Assembly: GCA_002245135.1 (NCBI GenBank)
Contig: NGBS01000879.1
Location: 186,001-215,396 of the forward strand
DNA length: 29,396 nt
Direction of reading: 5' to 3'
DNA from: Proteromonas lacertae
Taxonomy: Eukaryota
Shown here: piece after piece, positions 3,471 through 28,913 of the stretch
How positions within the stretch are numbered: position 1 is the stretch's first letter
How the letters are laid out: each line of letters opens with the position of its first letter
Position numbers and translations under genes: made by a program
Notes under the pieces: generated by a model
Database searches by the model: none
What the model saw: only the letters and a program-made list of their open reading frames with translations
What the model was told of the DNA's origin: nothing

Positions 3471-3490
3471 TATATATATATATATATATA

Positions 3491-3535
<45 letters not shown>
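3471..3535. repeat. Compound microsatellite (TA)n(TTA)n
   Basis: Directly visible. It generates the spurious IYIY/poly-Leu ORF 3358..3618. Confidence 0.95.
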
Positions 3536-3624
3536 CAAAATACTTACTTTATATTATTTATAAGCTGTATAATACTATCATGTACAGCGAAAGGTATAGA
3601 AGCATCATTATTTTATGAACATAA

Positions 3625-5582: not shown

Positions 5583-7100
5583 TATATAAATGGGACTCTG
5601 GCACAATGTCATAGAGTTCTAATGAGTGTTCTAGGAGTCAGTCCCCTTCTAGATTCAGAGTTTGTACCAGGGTCCCATTTACGTAAGGTTACTACGGGAT
5701 TCCTGTAAGCTATTTCTATACCTACCTATACCTATCTATGAGACGATCTCCTACTGTTACTCCTGGAAGCTATCTAGAAGTGTTGGTTACCTCGAGGTGA
5801 TGATTCTAATCACACTCTTGACTATCCTTGCTACGCTGGTGACCTTGTAAGGGCTTTTAATTGAACCGTGGAAACTCATCGTGGAACCGGGACTTTACAA
5901 TTGTTAACAAGTTACCAAATGGTAACTCTGGGAGGTTCTAGCTAGTTGTGGATTTCTCAAGGGACTTGAAGATAATGATTAGCAGTCTCGGAAGGCTTCT
6001 GAAGGTATGTTTTTCTTACAATGACTAGGAACAACCCGACAACTACAAGAGACTAACAAGACTGAGAATTACTTAGCCGATGATAAATTAACTAGTGCGT
6101 CTAGAGCATCTTCCATTACCTGGTGATTGCTTAGCTCAGAGAATCGTCTATCGATGTATTGCTTTAGCTGAGTTATGTTGAATTGCAAGGAGCAGGAGAA
6201 TTGAAGGAGGTCCAATACATGAAGTAGATAATTACGAAGGCTAGCTGCTAGTTCAATTCCCTTGTAATATTGCGGGTCACTGAGGATAGGTATATCAAAG
6301 ATAGCACTTACTGATTGTTTCACTTGATCGTAGAAGCTGCCAGTCACACCCTCAATGGATTCAATTACTTGCTTCAACAGTTCCTCAGCCATGTCTCCTT
6401 CGGGAATCAACATATTATGCAGTTGCAGTATTTCTTCTTTCTCAAGGAACTCAAAGATGTCCTTGTAGTCATCTATAGGATCTAGCTTCTCCAAGGTATC
6501 CTCGATTTCTTGGAGAATACATGATAGGAATGAACTAGTACCATGGCAGATATTTCTATTTGCATCCTTCAATTCCTTAAAGCACTCTTCTACCATCCTA
6601 CAGCCTAACAACTCAGGGTTATGTTCAGCTAAGTATGGATGATGCTTGTAAAGCTCCTTCTTATACTCCGGGAATTTCTTCTCTCTCAAATCCTCCAGGG
6701 AGCGTTCAAATTCATGTTGAGAGTGAAGGAATAAATCTTTCACTCTTCTGTAAGTACCGAAGTTAACAAATCCATCCTCATCCTTTGGAGTGTCCAAGAA
6801 ACAATTCAAGACCCTTTCAATAACTTCAGCAGCTTCATTGATGTACTCAGTAAATGGTGCAGTAACAGACTGCGGGTGTGTCTGAAGCTAAGTTAAGTTC
6901 ATTTCCCTTCCTTTGATAGACAAGTATATGGAGGTTTGTTTACCGAACCAATGATATCTAGCATCTTGCTTCTCATGCTTTGAAGGTATTAATTCCATCT
7001 CATGGAGTTCATCCAGAACATCCTCCCAGCCACGAAAGGGACGGACCCCTAGAAAACTCGTTAGGACCCTGATACTTTGTGCTAGGGTCCCATTTATATA
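5583..7100. mobile_element. GC-richer unit bounded by 67-bp imperfect inverted repeats (unclassified)
   Basis: 5583-5649 aligns without gaps to the reverse complement of 7034-7100 (54/67 identical by hand), both starting TATATAAATGGGAC. Base composition is visibly less AT-rich than the flanks. Confidence 0.6.
6069..7100 (-). pseudogene. Unknown, probably helical protein (~340 codons) interrupted by one TAG
   Basis: ORFs 6888..7145 and 6069..6809 are in the same frame, separated only by TAG at 6888-6890 and 26 sense codons (MNLT*LQTHPQSVTAPFTEYINEAAEVIERVLNCF). No family recognised. Confidence 0.5.
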
Positions 7101-7736
7101 TGTTGTGCGCCGTTTGTCATAGTTGGCCGTTTGTCTACCAGACACTTTTAAAACAAACTAAATGTATATTCTTACTTGTCTTAATGAAATATTGTTACTT
7201 TTATACTTACTTTGTTATATGACCTACCTCTGCAGTATACTTTTTGTTAATATAAATAGTTTGAATATTTGCGCCGTTTGTTTTCTAGAATTATTTGAAG
7301 CAAACTAAATGCATATTTAGCTAATATAGACTAAAATACATTAGCTGAAATGTTAAGAACAACTTAATGTTGATCATAAGACATTTAAAATGAAAAAAGA
7401 AAATATAGAATCAAGCCTCACTCAAGCCTATTTTTTACATTTCTTTTTTTTTATATAAAGATTTAATAATTATTATATTCTAATTATTTCAGCTAATGTA
7501 TTTTAGTCTATATTAGCTAAATATACATTTAGTTTGCTTCAAAAATTTCTAGAAAACAAACGGCGCAAATATTCAAACTATTTATATTAACAAAAAGTAT
7601 ACTGCAGAGGTAGGTCATATAACAAAGTAAGTATAAAAGTAACAATTTTTTATCAAGACAAGTAAGAATATACATTTAGTTTGTTTTAAAAGTGTCTGGT
7701 AGACAAACGGCCAACTATGACAAACGGCGCGCAACA
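7101..7736. mobile_element. Non-autonomous TIR element (MITE), family A, Ginger-like termini
   Basis: 251-bp near-perfect TIRs (7101-7351 / 7486-7736), termini TGTTGTGCGCCG...CGGCGCGCAACA, 134-bp non-coding spacer. No clear target duplication (TATA vs AGTC). Confidence 0.92.
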
Positions 7737-8277
7737 AGTCCGGTTAGTTCAATTTTTCTTGCACTTAAGGTATCTGTTACTCTACTTTGTAGCGAACTGT
7801 TAATTCATCTCTATTCAATATATTCTTTGGAGTTTGGATCTCTAATGTGGTTGCTGATGGTCTTGATTGATGGTTCAGATATAAGGACACATAACTACAA
7901 AACCCTCCCAATATTGCTAATGATGACTTTCAATGCCTTTGAAAAATCCACAACTAGCTAGAACATCTCAGAATTACAATTTGGTGGTTTTATCGATGTA
8001 GTTCTTTTTATAAACTATCTATATTAATATTCTTTTTATGCATATTTGATATAAAATAATCTCTTTTATACTTATTTAAAAAGAACAGCATAACTACAAA
8101 AAACAAAAAACTTATAGAAACAAATATTTATGTCGATATAAACGGGTTTGAGTGTAAATTCAAGTATCATTCAAGCATAATATATATTATCTAAAAAGAT
8201 TTTACATTTTATATTTATACTACAACAATAATTCCATTACATATACATTCACAATTACTATAGAAGAGAATGACATT

Positions 8278-9117
8278 CTAAAACATATAACATGCAGAAT
8301 CTTTTATATAGAAACCAAGTTCCTTTTTAAATAATGCAACTTTATACCCTTTTACAACAATTCTTGATATAAAATCTAAATCCTCTGTTGAATAAAGCGA
8401 TTCATTGTAAAGAATATATTTCATTATATCTCTTTTTATTGAAGGCCAACCATTTGTTATATAGAATCTATTTGACACATCACACATATATATTCTACCA
8501 TTATTATAAAATGTATTCCTACATCTTTCTGTAATTTTATTATATTGATTAATAACAGCATATTTTTTATATTCTTTTGTAAGATTAACTGAATCAAGCA
8601 AGCTATAGTTTCTTATTGAAGGATGAAATACTACATCAATCTTTGAATTTTCATAGAATATTTTATGAATTATGTATAGTCTGTATATTGACATTATATC
8701 GTCAATATCAAAAAATGAAAGTATTTGACATTGTGAATGGAAATATCCAAAGTTTCGGTTTGACGCAGCATTATACTTATTATATCTAAGCAGAATTACT
8801 AATTTCTGTGTGCATTTTTTTAATTCTTTTGATTTTTGTTTATAGTATTTTGATAAATTAGCATTAACTCCTGACAATACAATAATTATTTCTTCCGGAT
8901 ATTGTATAGAATTGCATATACTTCTTTTTAAAGTATTAAAACATCTTTCATAGTCTTCATAAGTTGAAGGTATTATTAGTGATATACAAAATGGATGTAT
9001 ATTAGATATTAAGTAAATATACTTTTCACATATAATTAATAATATAAATGAAAAGATAATAATAATTAATTTGTTTAAATCTATTTGTATATGTTGTTGA
9101 ATATTATAAATTTGCAA
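8278..9117 (-). CDS. GT2-like (GT-A fold) glycosyltransferase, type II membrane protein; true start unresolved
   Basis: Hydrophobic N-terminal anchor, ISLIIP, EIIIV, AASNRNFG, SFFDIDD (DxD), EDLDF. The ORF opens on TTG and no in-frame ATG precedes the anchor. Confidence 0.8.
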   Translation of the reverse strand: MQIYNIQQHIQIDLNKLIIIIFSFILLIICEKYIYLISNIHPFCISLIIPSTYEDYERCFNTLKRSICNSIQYPEEIIIVLSGVNANLSKYYKQKSKELKKCTQKLVILLRYNKYNAASNRNFGYFHSQCQILSFFDIDDIMSIYRLYIIHKIFYENSKIDVVFHPSIRNYSLLDSVNLTKEYKKYAVINQYNKITERCRNTFYNNGRIYMCDVSNRFYITNGWPSIKRDIMKYILYNESLYSTEDLDFISRIVVKGYKVALFKKELGFYIKDSACYMF

Positions 9118-9330
9118 CTACTGGTTATTAAAACATTAAGATGGCATTCTAATCTAATTACTTTAAATTGATTTGAATTATATGTTTACCTTGGAGTTGC
9201 ATCAGTTCCATTATCTAGCGAGGTGTAATTCATGCCTGGATGAAGTAAGTGTGTTGTATATTGATATGAGTTCTCTTACTTTGAACTTATTTGAAATGGG
9301 GTTATAATACATATAAATACTACATTTTTA

Positions 9331-10197
9331 ATGAAATTCAAAATATTTGCAAAGTATTTTTTAGTTATGATAATTATTTCTGTTTATTATAGTATTAATA
9401 TATACAAAGTTTTAAGAAATAATTTATTATATTCATGCATAGTAATTAGAGTAAAAGATGCAACGACTGAGCAACTTGAAAGGTATATACAATGGAAAAA
9501 ATCTTTTCCTAAAGAATATGACTTCTTTGTCCTTTCAATGACTAAAATAAATGCAAATATTCTAAAAACCTCTGGTGTAATTAATATAGTAGTACCATTC
9601 AATGAAATATTGAAAAAATATCCAAATATTACTCGATTAAATGGTAATTGTTCTAGTTTTAAATCTTCAAGATTACTTTCGTGGATTTCTCATTCCGAAT
9701 CATTAACTATTCTGTACTCAAAATTTAAAAAAAGATATGATTATATATGGATTATAGAACAAGATGTTGGTTTTACCGGAAGATTATATGATTTTATTAG
9801 TTTATATAGCAACTGTACGAAAGATTTTATAACAATAAATGTAGGAAAAATAACACCCAATTGGGTATGGTTTAATTGCGCTACAAATGAATATTTATAT
9901 AGAAGAAATACCATCTTTAAGAATAATTATGGCTACGCAAATAGAGAATATGTTCAAAGATGGTCTAAGTTATATTTGAAATATATGATACATGATTTGC
10001 AAAATAGTTATCATTCGCAAACTGAAACAAGTACTATCGAAACAGCTATGTATTACAATCTTTCATATGAAGTAATATCCAAAGTGTATATAGGTTCTCC
10101 TTTCTCTGCTGGTAAAACATTGACAAAAGAAAAATGGTATAATATAATACATACTAAAATAAATCACAATAAATTCTTTCACCCTTTGAAATTTTAA
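9331..10197 (+). CDS. Putative glycosyltransferase-like type II membrane protein
   Basis: 288-aa ATG-to-TAA ORF with an N-terminal anchor, YDYIWIIEQDVGFTG (ExD motif after a beta strand) and terminal FHPLK. Confidence 0.6.
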   Translation: MKFKIFAKYFLVMIIISVYYSINIYKVLRNNLLYSCIVIRVKDATTEQLERYIQWKKSFPKEYDFFVLSMTKINANILKTSGVINIVVPFNEILKKYPNITRLNGNCSSFKSSRLLSWISHSESLTILYSKFKKRYDYIWIIEQDVGFTGRLYDFISLYSNCTKDFITINVGKITPNWVWFNCATNEYLYRRNTIFKNNYGYANREYVQRWSKLYLKYMIHDLQNSYHSQTETSTIETAMYYNLSYEVISKVYIGSPFSAGKTLTKEKWYNIIHTKINHNKFFHPLKF

Positions 10198-10271
10198 TGG
10201 ATAAAATGACTTTTCAAAAAGAAAAAATTCAGACATTAATCAGAATAAATCGTATAAATATTATAAAAATA

Positions 10272-11288
10272 TCAACGTTCTGTATAAAAATATAAATAAT
10301 TTTTATATAAAATGGTTGAACTAAAATTATTTTTAACTGCTTTTATAGCTCTATCATATTGATGAATAATTGATGGTATAGACGAGTCTAAATTAAGAAT
10401 TACATTTTTAACTGGTAAACAACATATATTTGAATCAAATAACCATAAAGCTAATGTTCTAACAGGTGAATGAGATGAGTTAAGTATGTATATAGGATAC
10501 TTAAATGAATGTGTATTCCATATATATGTATTTAACCCACCTTGATCATTTTCATTACAGTTAAAAGAACATATATACTTTAAAAAATCAACAAGAAATG
10601 CTAATATATCAGGATAAGTACCAAATATTATTCCTCCATTAAGTACATTGCTTTTATATATTTTTGAAGTAGGTCTATAATTTTTAACATATAATGTATT
10701 TGATTTATCTCCGCCTATTTTTCTTCGAGGATGTTCTTCCACCAAATATACTCCTTTTTTAATATTCCAATTGAATGGATTTAATTGAAATAAAACATCT
10801 CTAATATCTGTTAATAATATATATTTAAATCTATATCCATAGAATCTAATGAATAACTTCATAATGAAATATCTATAGGTAAAGAACGATATACTATTAT
10901 ATAAAAACAGATATTTTATAATATTCGACCTAGATATTGGAAAGGATTTATCATTATATGGATAAAATGGATATGTCTTATTAAGTATTATTAAATGTAT
11001 ATGATATGATAGAAATGATTTATTAATTATATCAATATTAGAAAATGTAAAAAGAATTAAATTTCCTGAATATTTTGTTTTGTTTAATGACAAAATAAAA
11101 TTTTGAATTTTTGAGAAATTGTAATTTAGCGCAAAAGACATGATTAGTTGTTCATTACTATGAATATACGTATTTGTGATGCTATTATAATTATAGTATA
11201 ATAAATGATAATCAGTATAATAGATAATAATATTGACATCATAAAATATAATAATTAAAAATAGAGTAAAAATTAATTCCAAAATCAT
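10272..11288 (-). CDS. Putative GT-A fold glycosyltransferase, type II membrane protein
   Basis: First ATG gives MILELIF... plus anchor. Motifs ILLTDIRDVLFQLNPF, LNGGIIFG, NDQGGLN, IIHQYDR. Confidence 0.75.
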   Translation of the reverse strand: MILELIFTLFLIIIFYDVNIIIYYTDYHLLYYNYNSITNTYIHSNEQLIMSFALNYNFSKIQNFILSLNKTKYSGNLILFTFSNIDIINKSFLSYHIHLIILNKTYPFYPYNDKSFPISRSNIIKYLFLYNSISFFTYRYFIMKLFIRFYGYRFKYILLTDIRDVLFQLNPFNWNIKKGVYLVEEHPRRKIGGDKSNTLYVKNYRPTSKIYKSNVLNGGIIFGTYPDILAFLVDFLKYICSFNCNENDQGGLNTYIWNTHSFKYPIYILNSSHSPVRTLALWLFDSNICCLPVKNVILNLDSSIPSIIHQYDRAIKAVKNNFSSTILYKNYLYFYTER

Positions 11289-11324
11289 GCATTTATTATT
11301 AAACACATTAATATATGTTAATAT

Positions 11325-12248
11325 ATGTTATTTTATTCTCAAATAGAAATCATCTTAATTTTTATGTTTCTAATTTTATGTTTTAGAGCTAAATATGGCG
11401 AAAATAGAAGTAATATTATAAACTATGAATATATTAGAGAATTTGAAAATCTTAAAATGAATGGGTTAAACAAATTAAAATGCTTATATCCTATTAAAGT
11501 TATTCATGTTAGTAGTATTATTATATTTCTTTTATCTAGGGATAGGCTTTATGCAGTTTATTATTCAATTAAGTATTGGATGAAATTGAATAGAAATTAT
11601 AATATAAAGCTAGTTATATTGGATCATAGTAGTACTTTTCTACCACTTTTAAACTATTATGATTATATAAAGAATAAATATGATATAGATATTGTTTATC
11701 TCAAACAAAACAGCTGGAAATATTTAATCGATATAGATATTCCAAATATAATTATTTCTTATCTCAATTTAAATATAAATATAAAATATTATATTTTATC
11801 AGATATAGATATTATAATGATAAATACACCTGCAAATATATTAGACTTATATGCTTCAGTACTTAGCAATTGCAATGTTAGTGTAGTAGGTCCATCACTA
11901 ATGGTTAATGATATATCTAATAAATTCCCTGATTTTAAAAAAGTATATACTTTTGAAACTAATTATCTAAAAACAAACCATTATGATATAATATACAAAA
12001 ATCAGTATTACACTTTTATTAGCGCAGATATTGACACAATATTTGGAATGAGAAAAAGAACAACAAAATTTAAAAGACATTCATTATATTCTTTTAGATC
12101 TCTATCACCTTATGTTGTTCATCATATTGATTGGTATATATCCTATCTTGATTTGCCTAAATCTTTTATATATTATGTAAAACATTCAAAATCTATAAAT
12201 CATTCAGGATCTGCTTTTAATATTTCAAATTCATTAAAACAGCCTTAA
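11325..12248 (+). CDS. GT2-like glycosyltransferase of bacterial appearance with an added N-terminal anchor
   Basis: RDRL, VILDHSSTFLPLLNYY, YYILSDIDI (DxD), ADIDTIF, PYVVHHIDWY resemble the bacterial GT2-like pattern NRL...DNxSTYPPLL-x-YY...TDPD...IDTTF...HLPWY (from memory). Confidence 0.7.
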   Translation: MLFYSQIEIILIFMFLILCFRAKYGENRSNIINYEYIREFENLKMNGLNKLKCLYPIKVIHVSSIIIFLLSRDRLYAVYYSIKYWMKLNRNYNIKLVILDHSSTFLPLLNYYDYIKNKYDIDIVYLKQNSWKYLIDIDIPNIIISYLNLNINIKYYILSDIDIIMINTPANILDLYASVLSNCNVSVVGPSLMVNDISNKFPDFKKVYTFETNYLKTNHYDIIYKNQYYTFISADIDTIFGMRKRTTKFKRHSLYSFRSLSPYVVHHIDWYISYLDLPKSFIYYVKHSKSINHSGSAFNISNSLKQP

Positions 12249-12257
12249 TTTAATTCG

Positions 12258-13244
12258 ATGATGTTCATTAAGAGATATATTAAAATAATCTCTTTATTCT
12301 TTTCTCTATTCATATTATTATATATTAAAAGAATTAATTTATCAAAAATAGATTTAATATTTAAAAAAATAGAATTAATAAATAATTATAATTATTCAAA
12401 ATTGTTTATTAATTCAATTAATCTTTATAATCAAAGACTACCATCTATAAATAGATTGTATCAAATGTATAAATCATGCAATGGTAAAAAAAGGACAATT
12501 ATTGTTCTGCTGTTTTATAATCAAATAAAACTATTCATTGATAGAAATTATCTATTCTTAAATCTAAAACATTATGATAAATTAATTTTCTTTGTTACTG
12601 AAAATATAACATTAGATGAAAAATACCGCAATATTTTCTATTCTGTTGTAGATGTTTCATCTCAGTTTTATACATTTCCCTATAAATTCAATACTTCAGC
12701 TTATAAACCAAACTACATGAAAAGAGGAAAATGGAATTATCAACATATGTGTAGATTTTTTTTTAAAAGTATTTTTATTAATCCATTATTGTGTGATTCA
12801 GATTTGATTATGAGACTTGATTCAGAATCTATTTTAAACACTTCTTCCAATTTATTTAATTACATGAGTGATGAAATTGTATATATGCATAACAGAATTT
12901 TATACGATGCTGTATTTGTAACAAAAGGATTAAAAGATTTTATATTTTCATTTATTAATGCATTTAAGATTAAAGTAGAAGATGTTAATAGATTTAGTAA
13001 AAATTTTAATTCCAGTGCACTTATTTATTATAATAATTTTGAAATATGTAGATCGAAATTTTTTAGAAATAGAAAAATGTTTCAGTTTATGATGTTAGTC
13101 GATTTAAGTTATGGCCAGTTTATCTATAGATGGGGAGATGCACCATTGAGATATACAAGCTTATCGTTATTTGCAAAAAGTTACACTAAATTATCATTAC
13201 CTAAAGATGTAAATTATTGTCATAATTTATGCAATTATTTGTAA
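12258..13244 (+). CDS. GT15 alpha-1,2-mannosyltransferase (KRE2/MNT1 family)
   Basis: YQHMCRFF, MRLDSE, YYNNFEI, FF, GQFIYRWGDAP are GT15 signature motifs. N-terminal anchor present. Confidence 0.9.
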   Translation: MMFIKRYIKIISLFFSLFILLYIKRINLSKIDLIFKKIELINNYNYSKLFINSINLYNQRLPSINRLYQMYKSCNGKKRTIIVLLFYNQIKLFIDRNYLFLNLKHYDKLIFFVTENITLDEKYRNIFYSVVDVSSQFYTFPYKFNTSAYKPNYMKRGKWNYQHMCRFFFKSIFINPLLCDSDLIMRLDSESILNTSSNLFNYMSDEIVYMHNRILYDAVFVTKGLKDFIFSFINAFKIKVEDVNRFSKNFNSSALIYYNNFEICRSKFFRNRKMFQFMMLVDLSYGQFIYRWGDAPLRYTSLSLFAKSYTKLSLPKDVNYCHNLCNYL

Positions 13245-13371
13245 AAATAGTTTGTTTACATCAATTCCAGTACATTTATAAATTTTAGTGAATATAACAG
13301 TTTATTATTCAATAATGCAAAATATTAAATATTATACTATATTTATACTTATAAGAATTAAATATTAAATA

Positions 13372-14326
13372 TTATTTAAGTTTGTAGTATAATGAATATG
13401 ATAGAATATCAGTAGATATTATTCTATGTATTACTGTAACATTTTTATGAATTGCACATCTATTAGGAAGAATTGCATAACTTGATATTCTATTAATTTT
13501 TAGATGAAGACTATATAATAACCATGAAATATGTTGATCGTCAATTCTTATTAAGTATGTATTTCTTAGTGATTGATTAAATAATAATGTTGGCATATCA
13601 GAAGAAAACATTGTTGCAAAACCTGAGTATACATCAATACCTGAGACAGGAAACTGCTTATTATAGTATTCTGCTATATTTTTAGGAGAACTATATTTAA
13701 ATGAAGGATTTGAATTTATACGTTTCCATTTTTGTTTTTCAGCGCCCCAAAATTGATACTCTTTATAAAGATATGGCTTTAGTTCTTCATACAGTCTATT
13801 CAAATCTACATATGTATCAACATCAAACTTTGCATAGTATTGAGAATATGGACATAGTATATTCAAAAATTTCATTGTATAAAGAGTAAATATAGTTTCA
13901 TTAGCAAATGATTCATGTATATTTATTTGAAGTATATCTCCATACATTCTGTTTTATAATATATCTTACTGCTATATACCTAGAATTTTTACCCCACGTT
14001 AATCTGATTGCATTTCTTTCACTCATTTGTTTACATTCAGAAATAATGAATATATATATAAAAGTGTCACTTGGACATGTGGTATTATGGATAAAATAAT
14101 AATCATAAGGAAAAGGGTGAGGATAATCTGATTTTGCATAAGTCGTATGTATACATCTAGTATTCTTTTGCTTTAAACATTTTTCTTTACATGTAGCATT
14201 CTTTAAACACATTAGAGTATTCAATACTCTACTATTTTTAACATAACTATATTTTTTATTATATACCATGAGTATAATAATCAAAAAATAATAAATTAAC
14301 AAATAATAATATGATAAAATCTTCAT
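13372..14326 (-). CDS. GT31 beta-1,3-glycosyltransferase (galactosyltransferase family), two exons
   Basis: ERNAIRLTWG, YGDIL, ESFAN, CP, AKFDVD (DxD), SG, IDD and a terminal H motif. A 31-nt GT..AG intron (13949-13979) joins the two ORFs in frame (KNSR-MYGDI), though the linker is shorter than usual for GT31. Confidence 0.82.
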
Positions 14327-14341
14327 TACTTCACTAAAAAT

Positions 14342-15763
14342 TTAACAAAAATTCTCTCTTACTATTGCTTTTGATATATATGATATATTGTTTGATAGAA
14401 AGAAAAGATGAGATATATTTTTAATATGGATAATATATAGTCTATATTGACTTTCTTCAATTGAATTACTCAATAAATCTAAATCTTTATTCTCCCATGT
14501 TATATGTTTATATGATTCTTTCAATGTATATGGCGTAAGTGGATGGGATAGAAAAGTCTATAATATATAAATAAAAATACAGTCTCTCTATAACTATTGC
14601 CGAAATAATTATTTAACTTTCTTATTTTCCATAACTCAATATATGAACAGTATGTGTGATTTTTACAGTATTTGCATTGATGTAGGCAATGATTACATTT
14701 TATTTGAGGTAATATAAATACAATATTTACAATAGTTGTTATGTAAAAACCAAACTTTAGAATTATTTCATCTTCATCAATATTATTACTATTAAATTTT
14801 AAAGTAAAATATTTCTTTGAATAGGAAGAATAGTATCCTTTAAAATCAAAACAATAGAAATGCATTTCTTTTTCTCTGTATAATTTTTTGTCCGATCCTG
14901 TGATCCAATTATTATGTACTGTAATATATGAATTATCTAATAGTAATATAATATTTAGATACTATGTAAATGATAATAAAATATTCTTTTCCCTCTAATA
15001 TAGAATTCATCTCCACATGCAAATAATTTCAGTGGCAAATATGTAACATTTATTGTTAAATTATATTTTAATGCATAATTCCAATGAGCTTGTTCACCCA
15101 ACTTAAATAGCATCCTATTTTTCTGTAATACATTCATAAAATTTATCATTCTTTGATTTGCATTAGCTAAACTATAACTGATCATATTGAATTATACTAA
15201 AAGCCTGAATTCATTGTTGGACAATAATGATCACATGAAGTGACTAAATCAGTATTATAATGAAGTAAATAGTTGATAGGGTTTTTGAAAAAAATTAGAT
15301 CTGTATCACATAGAATTATATTGAATTTGAGCAATAATAGAAGTTTCACATAATCAGTTTTTGAATAGACAATTTTCCAGTACATAGGAGTATTATAATC
15401 GATATGTTCAGTTATATTTTGTGTATAATTTGACATATATAAATTTGGTAAATCATGTTTAGTTAAAAAATAACCATTTAAATCCAAAGATATGAAAATT
15501 ATATTACTAATGTTAAATTTCCTTATAGAACAATAGTAAAAATTCATTAATTGTAGATATATATTAGAAGTAAATAGAACCAGAAATATATTCTTTTCTT
15601 TTTTAAATTTATTTAACATATTTATATCTGATATAAGTTTAATTTTTTTACTAATCTTTAAATAGTTTAAATCATCATAAATTATTTCAATAAATATTAT
15701 AAGAATCATAATTATAAGAATATAAGAATATTTCAACATTTTCTGTAACTTATGGAAAAACAT
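14342..15763 (-). CDS. Nucleotide-diphospho-sugar transferase (GT77-like), four exons
   Basis: ILCDTDLIFFKNP, NSGFY, EQ, LP-x-x-LF-x-CG, HNNWITG-x3-K-x-x-R-x-KE, RE-x-x-FL-x-HP. Removing GT..AG introns 15172-15197 (26 nt), 14937-14962 (26 nt) and 14558-14580 (23 nt) joins four ORF-track pieces into one frame. Confidence 0.85.
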
Positions 15764-15839
15764 ATTTCATAATATTTGTAGAAGCCATAAAGATTATATC
15801 ATGAAAAAATGATGTAATCTTAAACACAGTTCATAATAA

Positions 15840-16922
15840 TTATTTTTTATTTACTCTTTTCTTTATTTCATAATATAAAGGATCATAAATTGTATAAGTT
15901 CCATCATGAAACATATAATATCTATTTTTTCTTTTATTTTTATTAAAGTTATATAGAATTAATAATGAGAATGTACTTCTCGGAGATAAAATTAAAAAAT
16001 CACTCCTTCTAAGCAAATCAATATCACCAAGCAGTTTAATATAGAATGATTTAGAATAGTTCTTATTTCTACTTATTCCACTGCTATGATATATTTCATA
16101 TTCTTCTTTATATGATATACTATCACTAATGTTGTGTTTAATTTTATAAAAAAAATACTTATTATCAGTGCTTAACATTAACTTGCAGCTTCTATTTCCA
16201 CATATATTAGTATATAGTTTTAATATTCTTTGATAAATATTAATATCAATTTTACATTTATTTTGCTTAATCATACAATTATCACCTAATCTTATGTGAG
16301 CTCCTATATAAAACATATTTCTTTTAGTGAGAGTTGTTGTAAATAATTTTAATCTTATATATTTATTAAATAGTATTGAATTTATATATATGATTCGATC
16401 ATTGTGCTGATGTATATTTTTCTTCAATAATTTAAACTTTAATATTTTATTATATATTTGATCAACATATAATAACTGCGGAACTAAGTCATAGTGAGTT
16501 ATAACTTCAATATTTCTTATATTAAAAGCGATTATTTCATTAATTATTTTTTCAAATGATTTGTTATAAGAATAGCCTGAAAATTTATAAATTAGACAGT
16601 TTTCAATTTTCAATTTTCTTTCTTTAACAATAATGATCTTATTGAACTGCACTATATTTAATAATGAATATGTCGCATATACTATCATTATATTATATTA
16701 CACTATTATACTAACAAGTTGTCTGTTACTGATAAATGATAGAATTAATGATGAGCTAATTCCTAGTAATTTGTTTCCCAAACCTCCAGAATTAGGCTTA
16801 TTGTATATATACATTATTCTTTGAGTATTATAAGCATTATTAAGAAATAAAATAAAGGAAATTACAAAAAAGAAAAAGAAGGTACTGCTTTTGGTAATAT
16901 AGTATATATTTATAAATGACAT
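15840..16922 (-). CDS. Fucosyltransferase-like GT-B enzyme (GT11/GT23-NodZ/GT37 superfamily), two exons
   Basis: Anchor, GGLGNKLLG, IGAHIRLGD (motif I), LSTDN (motif II), D-x-x-LL...STFS (motif III). A 30-nt GT..AG intron at 16682-16711 joins the ORFs in frame. Confidence 0.82.
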
Positions 16923-17163
16923 ATATTATTATACAATATATCAATATTGTATAGTATGTTGGTTTTGTTTTGATTCAAAATAAAAAATTCGTGCATAATG
17001 TAGGCATATTTAATAAATAATATTCGAATTACTGTTTCTAAAATTAAACAAATATCCAATCCCTCTATAATCATTAATGTAAAATGATGCAAAACACATA
17101 AATACTACTCTTAAAATGAAATCCAATGATTTATATATACTACTTTTTACAACATTTATTGAT

Positions 17164-18400
17164 CGCCATTTGTCATAGTTGGCCGTTTGTCTACCAGACA
17201 CTTTTAAAACAAACTAAATGTATATTCTTACTTGTCTTGATGAAAAATTGTTACTTTTATATTTACTTTGTTATATGACCTACATCTATGTTAAAAAAGA
17301 ATATATTTCTTGATAATCGTCTTATAATCCAAGAATATGTTTTGAGATACTGTCATTAATCTTTCTTCAACGTTCTTTTGGGTCAAGCCTGGACAAACTC
17401 CACTATTAAGGGGATTAAGCTGTTCTTCACCAACACATTTCTGAGTGTTTTGGCATGTTGAATTGTAATGCCATTAACTTGACTTCTCAAGATATAATCT
17501 CTAATAGCTTGCCCACTAATGATAGAGTTCAAAATAATTGGCTTTCTCCCTCTTCTAACCTTAGGTGGTGAAATACTTGATTTGGCTTTGGACGTCTTCA
17601 ACTCCATAATTTGTAAGTACTTCCAAATAGTACTCTTGGTTCTTGCCATTTTTAAGGCAATTTCTCCAATACTACAAGATTGATTTACCAGAGCTCTAAT
17701 TTTCTCTTTTTCAGACTCTGGAGTTTTTTTGACAGTGACTTTACATGGTTGTTTTGGGGATCTCATTTGCTCTAATTAGCGAGAAAGATCTAAATAAAGG
17801 GAATGAAAATTCAGACAAAACGACTATTTTTATTGAAATCGTTCGATTTTTGTTTTTTCGATTTTTAATTATGAAATAGTTATTTGATCAGTCTAAAATT
17901 AAAATTATGTTGATTACCTATAAGGTAGCAATAGATTTATGATATAAAAATCAATAGATAAAGAGACATTTCAAAAAGTGAGAAATAAAAATTACAAAAA
18001 TACAACAGATAGTTTAGTTTTTTTTATTATTTTTGGTTATATATTTTTTATGGCTGAATTATTGATAGTTTTCTTTTATTTTATAAAAACTCTATCAAGT
18101 CAAGCTTGTAAATAGTGCAAAAAAATAAAGACAATACATATGTATAGTATAAAAAGAGAATGGGATGGCCAAGCCAAACCCATTTTTGATTCTACTATTA
18201 TATGGACTTTATAAATGAAGCTTGAAATTAACAAACATAAATTGACAAACATAAGCTTGAAATTACCTACTTTATTTTTATGAAGGTAGATGAATAATTG
18301 TATGTTATATTACAAAGTAAGTATTAAAGTAACTATTATTTATCAAAATAAGTAAGAATATAAAATTAGTTTGTTTTAAAAGTGTCTGACAAACGGTGCA
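17164..18400. mobile_element. Family-A TIR element with eroded ends, inserted in the glycan cluster
   Basis: Left arm 17164-17290 is nearly identical to 7108-7230. Right arm ~18304-18400 is a diverged inverse copy missing one GACAAACGG unit. The terminal TGTTG is absent on both sides. Confidence 0.8.
17300..17766 (-). pseudogene. N-terminal HTH region of a Tc1/IS630-like transposase
   Basis: EKEKIRAL...SIGEIALKMARTKSTIWKYL (HTH) and an RRGRKP linker. After a frameshift, PGLTQKNVEERL resembles the Tc1 P-x-LT-x6-RL motif. No DDE domain. Confidence 0.65.
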
Positions 18401-18409
18401 TTGAATATA

Positions 18410-19095
18410 TTATTTTTGTATACACCATGATTTATCTTTTGTTATATATAATTTTAAATGTTTTGATTTAACGAATTCATCTACTGCTCCTTTGACAGCC
18501 CTATTTAGCTTATCAACTGTACCATCAGGATATAATTTCCATCTACCTGGAGAATAAGAATAATCATCTCCGCATAAAATTCCTCTGTCTTTTAATATAG
18601 GAAAGTAATGATCAATATCATTCTTAACGCTGTAATAGTCATGCCTGCCATCAACATATATAAAATCATATGATTGTTGATAGAAAGATTTATAAACTAA
18701 TTCACTTTTAGATTTAAATATTTTGAATAATACTCTATTAGAATATTTCAGTACTACATTCATTGATTCTATAAATCTATTATTTTGAATTATTGAATTT
18801 ACATTAGCTCCATCATCATAATATTTTTGTTCTATCCATGGATCAATCAATGTATACTCTCTACAATTCTTCCATATTTTCAAAAGTTGTTCAGTATAGA
18901 TACCTCTTTGAACACCTATTTCCATACCTATTTCATACTTTCTCTTATCCAATATATATCCAATATATTCTCTACTTTTATTAGAAATTGTATTGAAGTC
19001 TATTTCATCATTTTTTTATTTGTTTTTATATTCAAATAAATAAATAATATAGTGAATACAGTAGAAATAACAATTAAATAATCACACAATATCAT
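18410..19095 (-). CDS. Class I SAM-dependent methyltransferase (Methyltransf_24-like) with N-terminal anchor; one apparent frameshift
   Basis: MEIGVQRG, IDPW, YDFIYVDGRHDY, LK-x-RGILCGDDY. ATG at 19095 gives MILCDYLIVISTVFTILFIYL, which joins the catalytic frame if one base is added to the T7 run at 19011-19017. Confidence 0.8.
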
Positions 19096-19900: not shown

Positions 19901-21389
19901 ATCTATTATTATAATTACAATAATATTTGTTCTTTAGAGATAGTAATCAATATAAATTAATCATCAAAATAACAAGTTGTTTATAAATATGTTAAATATC
20001 ACTATTGAGTAGTTTGTAGATGATGTTGTTCCCCGTATGGCGGAAATCCCAGTATGGCGGAACTCTATATTGCAGAATGATTCAATCAAAACTATTATGA
20101 TATTCATGATGTTCGGAGTTAGTTATTTTAGAATATATAGGTTTCGACCCATATAAACAACTTTTTTAGGCAACGAAAAAATGTCTTAATATGACATGAA
20201 ACCTATCTAGATAGACTACAAAATTCATGTAGATTATGAATATAATATTATTTTATATATATACACTCAAAATGAAAATTATCAGTTATTCAGGATTTAA
20301 GAATTTGACCCCTTCTGACGTCATTTCTGTCTCGAGTTTTCTATCAAACTTTTGAAATGTTTTTCTTGATTTTTCTTATTATATAGTGTTTTTTAAATTA
20401 CTTTACTATAAATATTAGAATTAATAATGAACAATTTACCATTTGATATACATAGAAACTAAAATACAATTAAATCTACCTAAATAGCTAATGTTCATAT
20501 ATTTTATAATTTATAAATGAAATGTTTATTAAACAATTTATAATTACTTATTTTATATAGCTTATTTTAGTTAACTGCTTCTATTTACTAATTACTTAAA
20601 TATGAGACTACTGCATATTTCATTTACTCATATTGGATAAGAACCATTATTAGTTGATTATAAATTTAAGTTAATTCTATTCTAAAGTCATCCTATACAG
20701 TCATTTAAAAATATATCCGTTTCCTTTGATATTTGAATTTAATTTTGAAAATGTAAGTGCTATATATATTATTTATATATTATTCTTATATATTATTATT
20801 ATATTATAAATTATATACTCATGTAATCATATTAATATATTTATTACCTGATTTTAGATTTAATATAACAATCATCCTTACAGTACTTGTTTATCAAATG
20901 TTGTATATGGTTTTTATACTTATTACACTTGATTTTTTGTGATGAGTCATTTTAAACATCGTTATAAGCAGAATATAATTCTAGGTTACAATAATGAGTT
21001 TGATAAAGAGTGCATACACTAGTTATATGATTTTTTAAAGTATTATGGAAATGATATGTCTTACTAGTTTATAAAAGAAGATCCACAAGATTATGAAATT
21101 GCTGGTTTGTTCGTTAAATTAAGAAACATAAAAGAAAAAGCAATAATCTATTACAGTGTGAAAGATGAAAAAGTCATAAAAAGATTTGATTATCTTCATA
21201 CAATTAATTCAAATGATATGTTTCAAGAAGTGGAGAGAGTAATATGATCTAATATGCTGTTTGTTAAATTAGATGAGATAATAGCTGATTTTGATAGTCC
21301 TTCAACAGGAATAGTAGATCCATCAGTTCCAACCACTACAGCTACAGCAGCACCCCAACAGAAGCTGCTCCAGGAGCAATAACATATTC

Positions 21390-23339
21390 GATTTATTAGT
21401 AATTTCTCAATGTCTTTATTATCAAATCATCGAATAATAGAGAATATAAAACTTGCTTATATAGATGGAAGTAGTGAGATGGTAGTAAAAGAAATAATTG
21501 AAGTTTCATTTCTTCATTTGGGAAGTGTAAATGGTGATAATTGTAATGGTAATATATTATACAGTAATGCGATGACATACAGTTTACTTAGTCGAAGTTA
21601 TCAAACTTAATGAAAAGTTATGAGATAATCACTTCCTTTATAACAAATGAAAGAAATTTAGTATATAAAGGAAGTTATGAAATGAAAGATATAAGCTGCA
21701 CAGCTGCTTACGATGTAGTATCTCAAATCAATACAAATTGTCAAGGAAGTTGTTTAATAATTAGTGTAATAACAATGAATAGTGTGGATTATCCAGTATT
21801 GAGTTTCAGTTTAGATGAGATAATAATCAATAGTTATTTGAACAGTTATGAAAGTGAAAGTAGTAAATCGTTAAAAGAATCGTTGAAGTTATATATTGAT
21901 TAACTAATTTTAACATCTACAATGTCAATTGGTTATTCAATAATCAAAATATATGTCGATTCAATCAATCCGATAGGTAAAGATGAAACTGAATATAAAA
22001 ACGATTATACAATAAGTGATGAGTTAATAAAAAGTTCAAACAAACGAATAGGTATTTGGCTAAATGAAGAAGATAATGATGTTCGAATTTATTATATTAT
22101 GAAGCAATATGAGATTTATATAAATTCAAATGATGGCTTTAGAGGTAATTCAATTCAATTATCAATTCTTTATTGTATGAATAATGATGAAGAATTAAGT
22201 GAGATGGTGAATAACACAGAATATGAGATAATAATCAGTAATTGTAATAGAAATATAATTGAAAATCATAAGAATGAGATAGAAGAGAATAATGTGACCA
22301 TATTTTCAATAAGAAAAGAAGATTCAAATACATGTGATGATAAAATGTATAAATATATTATTATTGTTATTATTATTATTCTATATTGAATAGAATTCAT
22401 TCTTCTACTTCTCCATCTCGAAGAGTCTTGCCAATAGTAGAATATTTGCTATCTAAATCAATATCCAAAATAATCTTAATCTATCCAAAAGGTTTTGAAT
22501 ATGCTTCAGATTATGATTTATTAACTAGTTCAATTAATGCATTAGGAGCAACAATATCTAAAGAATATAAAGTGAATGAAACAGATATTAATGACATTAT
22601 ATCAGCAGTTCAAGCAGCAATGGCTTCAGTTAGAAAATATATAAATGATGGTGGTTTAATCTTTAATTTATTAGAAACTGAAGCAAGTAATATAATGTAT
22701 GAGAAACTGTTTAGCATATGAGAATAGCTAAGAAATCTCTTCAAAATATCGAATAATCTCCAGAAAGATAGAGAATTTTAAGAAAGTAGATAAGAAATAT
22801 CGAAAAAGATATGACATCATTGTGAAAGTATGTGTTATACATATGATGATAGTTTAATTAGTAAAATAAGAATGTTAATATTTGGAAATGAAAGTATATT
22901 ATCAGAAAGTGAATCTGTTGGAATAGCAACAATCGAATATATAAAATCTGATATAAATTCAATCAACTTATTAGAATTTCTTCAATCAAGTTCAATATTT
23001 ACATCTTTTGGAGATATTTCAATTGGTTTTGATAATTGCATAAACTTCCCAATGTTTTTATTAACAAGTGTAGATGGTAAAATCGAAGAGAAAGTGATAT
23101 TATATAAAAAATGGAATAGTGATACTTATCAAAGCAATTTCAATGAGATTCATTTAAATCGAATAATAATATCTTTAATATTACTATTTCCAAGTACTGG
23201 ATTATTTGCTTATCGTGGAGTAGATTTAGTATCAAGTTATTTATCAACAATCGAATATTTAAATGAAGTAGAAAGTGAAAGTGGTTTATTCTATCTACTG
23301 AAGATGTTAGAAGTAAAAGATCAGTTATTAAGTTATTAA
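21390..23339 (+). pseudogene. Captured fragment of a multi-domain protein with type-1 periplasmic-binding (Venus flytrap; AmiC/UrtA/LIV-like) domains
   Basis: SPSRRVLPIVEYLLSK...IILIYP...ALGATISKEY...DINDII...LIFNLL, FTSFGDISI, and a new domain start ISLILLFPSTGLFAYRG...IEYLN. A 47-nt GT..AG intron at 22347-22393 joins two ORFs. Several stops and frameshifts. Confidence 0.55.
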
Positions 23340-23745
23340 GAATATATTTCATACAGGAATTTCTTTTCCAACAAAATATCCAATAATCTCTTGGATTGGT
23401 TCTAATTTAGGTATAAAAGAACGGCTGACCAAGTTCCAATGATAAACTATAAAATGGAAGATATAGTATCAACATCAAATAGTGAATTAAGTTTGGTTTG
23501 GTATAATAATTCTAATCAAATGAATTATTCTAATCAATTATTATCATGGTTAAATTTGTTACCATTTGTTTTTTGTATTGGTGTTTGGTTTTTTACAGAA
23601 ACAATCAAAAACAAGAATCAAAAACACAAATTAAAAACACCATATATATATGACTGTTTTATTATCTATATATAATATAATATATACTATCTATTTATAT
23701 AATCTATTTTATACATAATATATAGCTAATTTATCTTTCATATAG

Positions 23746-24948
23746 GTTATCTGATAAGCACGATATTAGAGATACTCTTGAATATAATCATAAAGCAATC
23801 TTTTTTGAGAGTATTGAAGAATTAGTGAAAATAAGAAACGTTCTTCTATTTTTACACAAAAGAAATTTGACGAATACATAAAATGTATTAGAGACTACAA
23901 GCATAAAGGTTTTGAATTCAATGAAACTGATGGTAAACTTACATACAAAGGAAAAGAGATCATAACAATTGATAAAGCTTTTACACTTATTGAGAAATTA
24001 CATTTGGAGTTTGCTCATCTTAAATCTGATCCTCTCTTTGATAAGATTCAAGAAATGAATTTATATGGAATAACAAGAGAAGTTGTAGAAATATATGTTA
24101 AATTATGCAATGGATGCAAAGAAACAAAGAAAATAACATTACAGAAACCAGTAAAGCCGATTATATCTCATTATCCTAAAGATCGTGTGGTAATTGATTT
24201 AATTGAAATGACAGCATTTAATCCACATAAAAAAAGAGGTAAATACAATTATATATTGACAATGATAGATCATTATTCAAATTTTACAATGCTTTACCCA
24301 CAAAAGACGAAAACAGATAGAGAAACAGTGAAGAATGTCCAGTCCTATATTAGAATCTTCGGTCCTCCAAGAATAATTCAATCTGATAATGGTGCAGAGT
24401 TTAAGAACAAAATGATGAAGGATTTATTAGAAAAGTACAATATTAAAGAAGTCACAGCTCTCCCAAGACATCCGCAATGCAATGGTAAAGTTGAAAGAAT
24501 GAATAGATTAGTCAAAGAAACAATTACAAGTTATCACAATATTGAACCAAAAGTTTATTGGATAAATTTTATAGAAAGAACAATTGAAAGAATAAACTCA
24601 TCAAAATGTAGAAGAACAAGATGTAAAGCTAGATCATTATTTTTTATGAGTGTTAATGAGATAATGAAACAGAATCCAAAGTTTAAACTTGAAGGAATAG
24701 TAGAAGAAGATTATGATGATGATAATAATGATGATGATGTTTGTGATTATATTGATGATACTGATAATGAACTTGATGAATTATACTTCGATTATGAAGA
24801 TAAAGATGATATAGATAACAATGAAATGAAGAAAAAGAAAAGAGAAGATGATAATTACAAAAGAACGAGAAAAAGTTTAAAAAAGAAAAATAGCAGGAAG
24901 AAAGATAAAGATGATAATTTAGATGATAATTTAGATAATAATAGTTAG
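23746..24948 (+). CDS. Retroviral-type integrase/transposase (HHCC zinc domain + rve DD35E core) followed by an acidic/basic low-complexity linker
   Basis: HLEFAH...CNGC, VVIDLI, QSDNGAEF, PQCNGKVER, with exactly 35 residues between the second D and E. The frame is open from 23818, and one frameshift is needed to reach the exon start at 23746. Confidence 0.92.
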
Positions 24949-27033
24949 AAGAAGACATAGTTGAGAATATAAATGATGATAAAAGTATAGATGAAACACT
25001 TTTAGATATTGAGAAGAATGAGAAAGAGACAATAGCGAAGAATGAAAAGATAAATAACCATGAAATTAAAGAGTTGAAATCAGTAAAAGATAAGAAGTTT
25101 ACAAAAAATAAAAAGGTCTATGAAGATGAAATAGTAGATATTATTAATGAAACTAATGAAGATAATGATGAAGAAGAATCGACAGAAGAGGAAACTGAAG
25201 TAATGAGTTTATTGCTAATGTAACAAAGCACTTCAAAGCAGCAAATCAAATATATGATGAAATGAAAACTAGACAATATAAATATAATAATAATATGGTA
25301 AATGTTTCCAAAAAGAAATTAAAAGGAAAAGAAATAGCTCTTAAAAGGGAGATGTTGTTGTATATTCTGAAAAGAAAGAATTATCAAGATAGAAACAAGT
25401 TTGCAATAGTTAAACAGGATAAGAAGGCGAAGAAAGAAAAGTTATATATAATGTATATTATTATTATATATATATATGTATATATAGAACTGATGATTAT
25501 AAAACTATTAGAATAAGACCATCAACGCCTGTACATAAAATACAACTCACAGAGGAAGTAAATGCTGTTACTAAAAGAAAAGCCAGTAAAATATATGTAC
25601 ATATAAATATATATACAATATAATATAGATCGATAATACTCCACAAAAGAAGAATAAATATTGTTCAGAATCTGATATTGAAAGAATACACGACATTGTA
25701 AGAAATCCTAAGCTTAATGCTGTTTATGAAACAATAGCTATTCCTTGCAATGATAATATTGAACAAAATCAAGTTGATGAAAGAAAATTAAAATATGTAA
25801 TAGAATTGATGAATAGAATAGGTAAAGAACAATTGGATCTTGAAGATTTACAATATTTATTAAAATTATATTATTATAATAATATTTATAAAGATTATGA
25901 TAATAATTATTTACATGATGGAAAGTTTGAAAAGTTTTTAATCAAATCCAATGGCATTTATTACACTATGGTTGTTAACAATAAAAAACAAACAGTTAAT
26001 ATCATAGATCCATCAGGCGAAGGTAACTATGATGAAGATTTAAAGAAATTATCTACTCATGTTACAAGTACAGATGGAAATGATTATAAAGTAATGTATG
26101 ATGTCATCGAAGTAACCCATCCACAAGCAACAGAAATAATAGCATTAATTACTTTCATGGCAAGTATTAAAAAACTCAATTTGGATTTATAGACAACGCA
26201 TTAATGGAAATACTTTTCAAAGATTATTTAAAAACCTTGGTTAACAATCATTCCAGAATTATAGAGTTAGCATATATAGAAGTTATGCCGATTAAAGAAG
26301 ATAATGCCAATGATCAAAACATCTTGTACGATGAAGTTCAATACAATTCATTAAATTTTTTGGATAAAGTTAGACTCAACTATCAATATAACGATGAAGG
26401 AGTAAGATATTATGGAACAGAAAAGGATTATTTTATTAGAAAAGTAAATGATATAAAGGATGTTTTAGACAAAGATACAATGTTGGATGATGACCAATTC
26501 AAGATTCTCCTACATTTTTATGAATAGTAATAATGATCATGTTGTAGATCCATTACTATTTTATTATCAAGACAAAGCCAAAATCAAAATCAACATAAAT
26601 GAATATATTTTTTTCCAGTTGTTAAAGATTTACATTGGACGTTGTTTGAAGCAGATTATATAATAAACAGATACATCAAAATTACAGTTATGATTCAATG
26701 GGTTATTTTAGAAATAATAATAAAGAAAGAAGTGAAATAGTTAATACAATCTCATCAATATTTGTAATGAACAGTGAAGATTATGAACTTAAAGTGAAGT
26801 ATCATGAATCCAAGTTGATGCAAGGTAAGGACAACAGTTGTGGTTATTATGTGTTATTTTTCTTAGCTGCGAGAATCAACTTCTTGGATATTGAAAAGAT
26901 CCCAAACATTGAATCATTTAATATTGACTATTTTATCAAAGATATTAAGAAAGGATTACAGAATTTAGATGATAATGAAAAGGCAAAGATGTATTTCTAT
27001 GCAAGTAAAAGACCAACTTATTACAAGAATTAA
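24949..27033 (+). pseudogene. C-terminal part of the transposase gene: low-complexity linker, short introns, Ulp1/peptidase C48-like domain(s)
   Basis: Across frameshifts: MLDDDQF...YIFFPVVKDLHWTLFEAD...SYDSMG...MQGKDNSCGYYVLFFL (His, Asp, Gln, Cys motifs). AT-rich GT..AG intron-like segments near 25453-25487 and 25597-25628. Confidence 0.72.
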
Positions 27034-28913
27034 TGCACTCATTATTACTTCTATTACTATTATAAACACTATATTTCTTATATTCTATTAATAATTTTTA
27101 ATTTTTGAGTATAAAATAAAAAGCAACTGCATAATTTAAAACTATGTATAATTTGAATTACAATATTGTTCAGCTTTATAAATATATTATAAAATTATAT
27201 TAAAGTCAAAATTATAGAAATTCGATATTTAATGTATCTCATTTTTATAAAATCTTAAAGTATCAGTCTATAATATTGCAGAATATATTATTAAATAATT
27301 TTATGACTACTTTAGCATAAAAGAATTAGTAAATGTTTTAAAAATAGAAAAATTGCACAATTAAGGGGTGAAAAAATTAAGGAATTTCATTATATTTTTT
27401 CGATTATCATAATAACCAGATGGAATTTTTTTATAATATTTTATAATATTCTTAGTTAGAATATGTACTAATAGAATATTAAATAATATTAAATATATTG
27501 GTGAATTGAGTGATATCGTCTCATGTCTTACATATGATAAAGTTTATTATATATTTGTTAATAACTAACTCCGATCATCATGAATATCATATTAGTTTTG
27601 ATTGAATCACTCTGCAATATAGATTTCTGCCATACGGGGATTTCCGCCATACGGGGAACAACAATTACTACAACTTAAACAAACATTAATCTACAACTGA
27701 GATAAATTACTATTAAATCTTTCGCCTTATATATATACAAAAATACATCAGCTGAGATTAAAAAATCGATGTAAAGGTAATCAAAAATGGAAAAATAAAA
27801 ATTGATTTCAAGCCTCTTTCAAGCCTGCATTTTCAATTTCAATATTAAGTATTAAGAAATTTAAGTTATTATATTCTATTTATTTAAAAACCATAATCTC
27901 GTTTTCTTCTATTGCTATTGACGTATAATATGAAGTATAAACAAACAGTGTTATATATATTAATGATTAACCAGAACAATACGATATATAGCCAACGTAA
28001 CTTTTTTGAGAAACTAAGTGTATATTTGTAACTAAGAGTCATTACGGAAATGTCAAACTTGATGGCTCATACAAGTATTATGAAATTCAGTAACTTTTAA
28101 TTAGAACAATCTGTAAAGCTGTAACTTGTGTTAAATATACCTATATCGATAAATCATTCTCATACTTTCTTTTATTTTCAAGAGTTTGGCAGTTAGTTTC
28201 AGGATGAATACTCAAACTATATGAAAGTAAAATTAATTATTTAAGGCTATGGAATGTATGGTTAATAATATTGATAATTTTATCGAATATCTATAATAAG
28301 TATATTACTTATCTAGAATTATATTCTATATTGCCTATTTTATTTACACTTCTATATTAAAAGAGAATAATAAAAGTAATAGGATATTGGAATTAATTAT
28401 AGTTATAAAAAGTTTAGTAATATTTATATTATCTCTTTTAGTGTATAGATTAAATGAAAAATCATTTCGCTGCATTATAGGATTATATAAATTTTATAGC
28501 AACTAAAAGCTATTAATCAAAGATATGATGATTAATAAACAATATAATTCTTAAGATGTGTTGATTAGATTTTATATTTTAATATCTCAATATGCCAAAA
28601 TATATGGATGGAAAATATTACAGAGATGGATGAACAAACAGAAACGTAAGAAGTTTATTTACCAAAAATTTCATCAATAATATACAATAATTTCTCGTAA
28701 CCCACAAGAAATAATATTTCATAAATAACATACTTTCGAGAAAGTTGCATAATTACACCTCCCTTTAGATTAAGTGAATTGAAAGGGAAAATAATGATTA
28801 AACAAATTGACTTTTCAGAAATCTACATTGTATGTATTGGATTCCACAAAAAGATCCTCACTATCAACATTGCAAAAAATGTTAACTAGAATAATATACA
28901 ATGAAATAGTATT

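Follow-up and report, generated by a model that had tools for sequence, protein, structure and literature searches.

We analyzed a 29,396-nt stretch of contig NGBS01000879.1 of Proteromonas lacertae (hereafter, the window), which has a GC content of ~24% and is read with the standard code. At positions 20024-27663 it carries a 7.6 kb Ginger-type element that is bounded by terminal inverted repeats (TIRs) and codes for an integrase with an Ulp1-like tail. The start codon of this transposase is probably split by the first intron, and the interval between the predicted splice sites holds captured gene material.

Ends and transposase gene of the element

The left TIR (20024-20127, plus strand) begins with TGTTG and pairs with the right TIR (27560-27663, minus strand) at 98 of 104 positions, leaving six mismatches. 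Each of these ends is found once in the window. The flanking tetranucleotides, ATGA at 20020-20023 and ATTA at 27664-27667, agree at three of four bases and form a candidate 4-nt target duplication; the target of this single insertion reads GAT(G/T)AC. Inside the TIRs lie two subterminal blocks, both on the plus strand, with counterparts in a sister element located in the left part of the window. The left block (20150-20326) is 70% identical to 3092-3268 over 177 nt, with an alignment score of 101 compared to a maximum of 35 in 100 shuffles, and the right block (27357-27535) is 71% identical over 180 nt to the right end of the sister element (1866-2045). The original prediction assumed that the left TIR and the integrase belong to one element, and this assumption is supported by the pairing of the TIRs and the match of both subterminal blocks to a single sister family. 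The TIRs themselves (20024-20057 vs. 2977-3010) have in common TGTTGT and a twice-repeated CCGT(A/T)TG(G/T)C-like unit, while their local alignment does not rise above shuffles. This suggests that the TIRs have diverged faster than the subterminal blocks.

The transposase gene is on the plus strand. The coding part of its predicted first exon consists of the AT of the split ATG (20751-20752), as judged from the motifs described below. The second exon (23746-25452, ~6 frameshifts) codes for an H2C2 zinc finger, a DDE integrase core, an acidic tract, and a C-terminal domain. It is followed by an intron of 35 nt (25453-25487), which also starts at AT|GT and at which all five relatives examined read M-Y, and, further downstream, by an intron of 32 nt (25597-25628), where the relative P0001 ends. 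The last exon (25629-27033, at least three frameshifts) codes for the Ulp1 (C48)-like protease tail. Removal of the 35-nt and 32-nt introns joins three exons without a stop codon; P0001 reads through a 30-nt intron at the point of the former and stops at the next intron. The integrase core (23818-24945) carries the H2C2 and D-D-E motifs and matches the Pfam family rve with E 4.5e-13. For the tail, Pfam and PDB sequence searches yielded no C48 match, and language-model features (Atlas) gave 0.95 to PF02902 clusters with 202 shared features. The motifs YPYY and GPY/F were absent from all three frames of 23818-27033 and from the reading of 23747-23881, and no reverse transcriptase family was found among the ten open reading frames (ORFs) of the element that were scanned.

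In a search for proteins of similar length, five of eight matches were close relatives, with identity of 45-93%. In a tree of 31 rows, none of which is a named Ginger, the element and five relatives form their own clade (support 100/100), which is joined to stand-alone rotifer integrases at 81/76. When longer, possibly spliced relatives were sought, none of the matches was close (39 matches of 875-2495 aa and nine of 511-2000 aa, the best at 33% identity), which is weak evidence. The plasmid search returned one weak integrase match only. Among metagenome contigs, 91 pattern matches to the protein query and 236 to the alignment query yielded no confirmed related locus; the same was true of seven pattern matches in viral contigs, and the TIR patterns had no matches in viral and prokaryote genome contigs.

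The transposase has accumulated about eight or nine frameshifts, four of them located by the relatives and six lying on the path of a codon model, with one common to both. All four frameshifts located by homologs reflect deletions within A-rich stretches. In its assembled form, this copy is unable to produce the full transposase.

The probable split start codon and the captured fragment

The signals of the predicted ~3-kb first intron are present as originally described: ATGTAAGT at 20751-20758, CTAAT at 23726-23730, and TATAGG at 23741-23746, with an interval of 2993 nt between the splice sites. The reading joined across donor and acceptor is, also as described, MLSDKHDIRDTLE. The donor at 20753 is the single occurrence of GTAAGT on the plus strand of the element. 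The longer motif AAAATGTAAGT occurs three times in the window, whereas 100 order-2 Markov simulations gave 0.17 on average and never more than one, and every one of these sites (2563, 3458, and 20748) lies 310-727 nt inside a left TIR. The branch-like CTAAT motif was placed correctly but discriminates poorly, as the interval contains six CTAAY, two of them with a YAG 8-30 nt downstream.

To place the beginning of the second exon, we rely on the relative P0003. In an ungapped scan of 58,674 placements in six frames, its first 19 residues fall best at 23777 (score 36, the next being 29), shifted by one base relative to the integrase frame. This indicates that the bases following TATAG|G are coding and that the frameshift is real. 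Hence the single frameshift originally proposed between the joined start and the integrase does exist at the start of exon 2, although the transposase as a whole has several more. No ATG is available in the frame following TATAG|G, which is closed by a stop at 23723, and the integrase frame offers its first Met only at 24055, within the zinc finger; therefore, the split ATG is the best candidate start. The chance of finding AT before the donor and G after the acceptor in the right frame, calculated post hoc, is ~0.17 x 0.11 x 1/3 = 0.006. Taken together, these signals make it quite probable that the transposase start codon is split AT|G by the first intron. Shorter introns of 106 or 131 nt, extending to the first AGs, were considered as a source of the ATG and rejected, as they give AT+A and AT+T, respectively.

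Both ends of the predicted intron differ in composition from what lies between them, with 12-13% GC in the two terminal segments of ~105 nt vs. 26% across 20859-23640. The 5' segment (20753-20858, 12% GC) comprises the donor and element-derived sequence with the first AG at +105 and resembles 3458-3567 of the sister element; the 3' segment (23641-23745, 13% GC) comprises CTAAT and the acceptor TATAG. From the lengths of these low-GC ends, 106 and 105 nt, the native first intron would have been ~200 nt long. The two TA-rich ends share a 46-nt direct repeat (72%), which is of low complexity and hence weak.

The interval between them contains captured gene material, as had been proposed, which follows from a match to a receptor family and from an intron inside the cargo. 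The best-supported part (22374-23294, plus strand, with one stop, two frameshifts, and deletions) is a fragment of a family of receptors with multiple periplasmic-binding domains and a seven-transmembrane (7TM) region. Seven of nine matches to it belong to this family (profile E 2e-47). The longest protein of the family contains five periplasmic-binding domains and matches 7tm_3 weakly. The closest relatives are 74-89% identical over 89-93 aligned residues and reveal the deletions and frameshifts of the cargo; one of them, P0073, is frameshifted itself. Without the 47-nt GT-AG intron at 22347-22393, two frames become continuous, in the same order as in P0067. As the cargo keeps this intron of its own, it was captured at the DNA level, in the sense orientation. 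The 5' part (20859-22346, plus strand) consists of decayed coding frames with five in-frame stops on the best path. Within it, 21790-21975 weakly matches residues 1241-1311 of the receptor-family protein P0066 (E 1e-5 in a set of ten proteins), and a profile of five P0066 repeats has no match below E 0.01 in this part. The 3' part (23295-23640, plus strand) contains a rival acceptor, TTTAG|G at 23411, use of which would yield an 88-residue non-transposase peptide.

Pfam, NCBIfam, and PDB gave no name to the cargo ORFs, and their proximity to periplasmic binding proteins in Atlas (0.86) is a lead only. The parent of the cargo is likely a host gene. P0063, P0072, and P0073 represent damaged copies of this receptor fragment; P0063 occurs on 31 contigs, which may mean that the fragment has been amplified elsewhere or sampled often.

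Capture and possible splicing of the interval

The sister element offers a comparison for the same region. Its left end (2977-5150, plus strand) consists of the TIR at 2977-3080, the common subterminal block, AAAATGTAAGT at 3458-3468, a TA/TTA tract, and Hydin sequence from ~3580. The donor is followed by ~100 nt of TA-rich sequence similar to that of the Ginger-type element, with the first AG at +102, close to its position there. The sister cargo corresponds to Hydin residues ~528-886 (3947-5057), with a duplicate piece at 3583-3705. The right end of the sister family, at 2162, differs from the left end at three of 104 positions and is preceded by Hydin residues ~2530-2580, so that the order is reversed relative to the intact gene. 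Overall, broken pieces of Hydin, a flagellar central-pair protein, lie at 1-660 and 3580-5150, the C-terminal part before the N-terminal one. If the host lineage has lost flagella, these pieces would be relics kept in transposons. A tblastn search with five transposase relatives found no transposase in the window outside 23833-25599, and none after the sister cargo. The latter seems to have replaced the transposase, or else the rest has been deleted; the left part of the first copy is hidden by the window edge. Thus, the expectation that different cargos occupy the same position is borne out by the Hydin pieces behind the same donor, but not by a transposase behind Hydin. That one donor motif precedes different gene pieces in the two elements makes the first intron a likely preferred site of capture.

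On balance, we lean towards a cut-and-paste transposon of the Ginger type with a likely AT|G-split start, whose first intron is likely a hot spot of capture rather than a proven neutral bay for cargo. The TA-rich first intron would be a fragile site rich in microhomology, at which gap repair with template switching has probably copied ~2.8 kb of likely host receptor-gene DNA. In Pack-TIR elements, microhomology has been reported at 67.6% of breakpoints (PMC8277862). Most transcripts are then predicted to be mis-spliced into the cargo's own sites, and the cargo would lower or abolish the transposase output, such copies moving mainly in trans. In the soybean wp allele, exons captured within an intron enter the transcripts by promiscuous splicing, and some transcripts are correct (PMC1947982); we would expect splicing in the present element to be as promiscuous or worse.

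Several observations weigh against this hot-spot reading. P0003 has its own Met 11 codons past the proposed start (codon 12 in the window, here CTT), and a start within exon 2 is possible in this protein. The third copy of the donor (2566) lies ahead of a Tc1-like frame and has no convincing AG|G partner. No cargo-free copy was seen from which the native intron and the breakpoints could be mapped. Finally, the codon-model path meets no stop in 1072 transposase codons but 5-6 in 795 codons of the cargo (post hoc Fisher p 0.006-0.014 for four cost settings), while 3-5 would be expected at the 3% decay per arm seen in the TIRs. Such an asymmetry would be expected if selection maintained the transposase while the cargo decayed.

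The same asymmetry speaks for efficient splicing of the whole interval, in which case cargo-bearing copies would be autonomous and the frameshifts would represent recent slippage or assembly errors in a repeat. Consistent with this, both intron ends are kept together with ~100 nt beside each; the donor is the sole perfect one in the element, the short introns using the weaker GTATA, GTATC, and GTACA; the four A-rich deletions are such as slippage or assembly error could give; and the neighboring host ORFs are intact. However, the asymmetry is gone in homolog-supported stretches (0-1 stop in the transposase vs. one in 286 cargo codons), and the path of the codon model can avoid stops by changing frame, with 26495-26649 being ambiguous. 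The cargo may also have been captured already decayed, as the damaged receptor copies P0063 and P0073 exist. In addition, the interval is 60-100 times as long as the other introns found here: three host genes have introns of 26, 26, and 31 nt, the transposase has two of 35 and 32 nt, and the cargo has one of 47 nt; the earlier figure of 23-31 nt for the cluster genes is to be corrected accordingly. The low GC, the standard code, the short introns, and the 30-nt intron of P0001 are suggestive of a Blastocystis-like protist. Low-GC lineages of Blastocystis are reported to have longer and more variable introns (PMC12129017), which leaves room for long introns here. The interval contains 82 YAG, 47 GTA, and eight inner YAG|G; among its numerous inner sites are those of the cargo's own intron and the acceptor at 23411. 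The frameshifts of the transposase, the lack of one behind the sister's cargo, and the mismatches in the TIRs (6/104) and in the target duplication (1/4) also argue against autonomous copies. Hence, efficient splicing of the interval seems unlikely to us. We are equally doubtful of the wider proposal of a protist Ginger family with an ATG-splitting intron as a cargo bay, from which kilobases of host DNA, receptor gene in this element and Hydin in the sister family, would be spliced out while the element stays autonomous and the cargo decays. Splicing of an intron ~100 times as long as is normal in the host would then gate the output of transposase.

Another possibility is that the start codon is not split and an ATG of exon 2, at the Met position of P0003, has been lost. 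The donor would then belong to an intron of the 5' untranslated region or be incidental, and the cargo would sit upstream of the gene, as is known for cargo in CACTA elements (PMC8978399). P0003 and four more of the nine members of its cluster are forms of 499, 283, or 224 residues, and those read start at the P0003 Met. On the other hand, this requires two base changes in one codon and leaves the in-frame AT+G junction to chance. The first called Met also differs among P0001, P0003, P0005, and P0057, which is weak evidence because the caller is inconsistent within one cluster: three members of P0003's cluster are called from a later Met. We regard the loss of an exon-2 ATG as improbable. If anything still less probable is that the cargo is a nested insertion of another non-autonomous element with a receptor piece, or that the left end and the integrase stem from separate insertions. 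The window is full of nested elements and the target duplication is imperfect, which speaks for these readings, but the TIRs, each present once, match one another, and both subterminal blocks have their counterparts at the two ends of a single sister family. Moreover, no terminal repeats bound the cargo, and a candidate hairpin end at 23560-23650 (z -0.64) was not above shuffles.

Surroundings and relation to known systems

Two older elements with TIR sequence of the sister family, at 2256-2976 and 17156-18405, contain helix-turn-helix frames that do not match each other; 17383-17775 matches HTH_38 with E 1e-4. We take both frames to be Tc1/IS630-like. The former element carries the donor motif AAAATGTAAGT (2563) and is broken by the TIR at 2977. 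At 7101-7736 lies a miniature inverted-repeat transposable element (MITE) with sister-family ends, 268-nt arms (95%), and a 100-nt spacer, with no visible target duplication, and a remnant of a MITE arm (27731-27885) is found just to the right of the Ginger-type element. A GC-richer (40%) insertion at 5583-7100 and 7738-7990 has 67-nt inverted ends and a 272-codon ORF on the minus strand; 5914-6010 is present again, inverted, at 7889-7985. A 41-nt inverted repeat with a 16-nt spacer (1441-1538) resembles the interior of the sister TIR. Finally, 8278-19015 is a dense cluster of intact, intron-poor genes with matches to Glyco_transf_15, Nucleotid_trans, and Methyltransf_24.

The TGTTG...CAACA termini, the 104-nt TIR, and the Gypsy-integrase-like protein with an H2C2 finger and a DDE core are those of the Ginger superfamily (TIRs of ~40-270 bp, TGTNR ends). 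Within it, the element is most like Ginger2/Tdd (Bao, Kapitonov, Jurka 2010; PMC2836005), which has TIRs of 50-180 bp, TGTNR ends, the same integrase organization without YPYY and GPY/F, an occurrence in protists, and AT-rich 4-nt targets, of which the present site is a candidate. It is unlike Ginger2/Tdd in its Ulp1-like tail, reported for Ginger1; its target GAT(G/T)AC is not RTATAY, but a single insertion says little about a preference. Neither cargo nor a split start codon is described in the part of that paper covered here. With Ginger1 it has in common a C-terminal protease (Ulp1, where Ginger1 may have Ulp1 or OTU), the TGTNR ends, and a spliced transposase gene, Ginger1 genes having 1-4 GT-AG introns (PMC2836005). 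Unlike Ginger1, which is reported from animals only, it lacks YPYY, GPY/F, and the CCGG/CCGT target (PMC2836005), and it also lacks the 6-bp GC-rich target duplication of GingerRoot. Thus, the element fits Ginger2 save for the Ulp1 tail, mixing Ginger2-like integrase features with a Ginger1-like tail, with the reservation that the tree included no named Ginger.

The original prediction held that gene capture had not been described for Ginger-type elements. This is not so: 22 of 77 GingerRoot elements carry host gene fragments of 84-1654 bp, including introns, and the DDE region, mostly lost, is kept in six of these 22 (Cerbin et al., 2019; PMC6839031). In the present element, the cargo is larger (~2.8 kb) and is framed by a donor and an acceptor, the transposase region has been kept, and the target is not of the GingerRoot type. 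The main text of that paper uses the word "intron" once, not for the capture site. In the literature covered here, capture is described in GingerRoot and CACTA elements, and a transposase intron that splits the ATG and holds cargo is nowhere reported; cargo positions may be shown in Repbase, or in the supplements and figure 3 of the GingerRoot paper.

Gene-capturing DNA transposons usually lose their transposase. If splicing works here, a fixed capture site in the first intron would let the element take up host DNA and still move by itself. With an inner fragment of a likely host gene captured at the DNA level, the element corresponds to Pack-type transposons. It resembles Pack-TIR, Pack-MULE, and Tgm-Express elements in the probable template-switch capture of DNA and in captured exons inside an intron, here a predicted one (PMC8277862; PMC1947982). 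Those elements, by contrast, are mostly non-autonomous, and in the case of Tgm-Express1 the intron is that of a host gene rather than of the transposase. Even without splicing, the finding of different cargos behind one donor motif in two sister elements suggests a capture hot spot defined by sequence, which bears on the origin of Pack elements.

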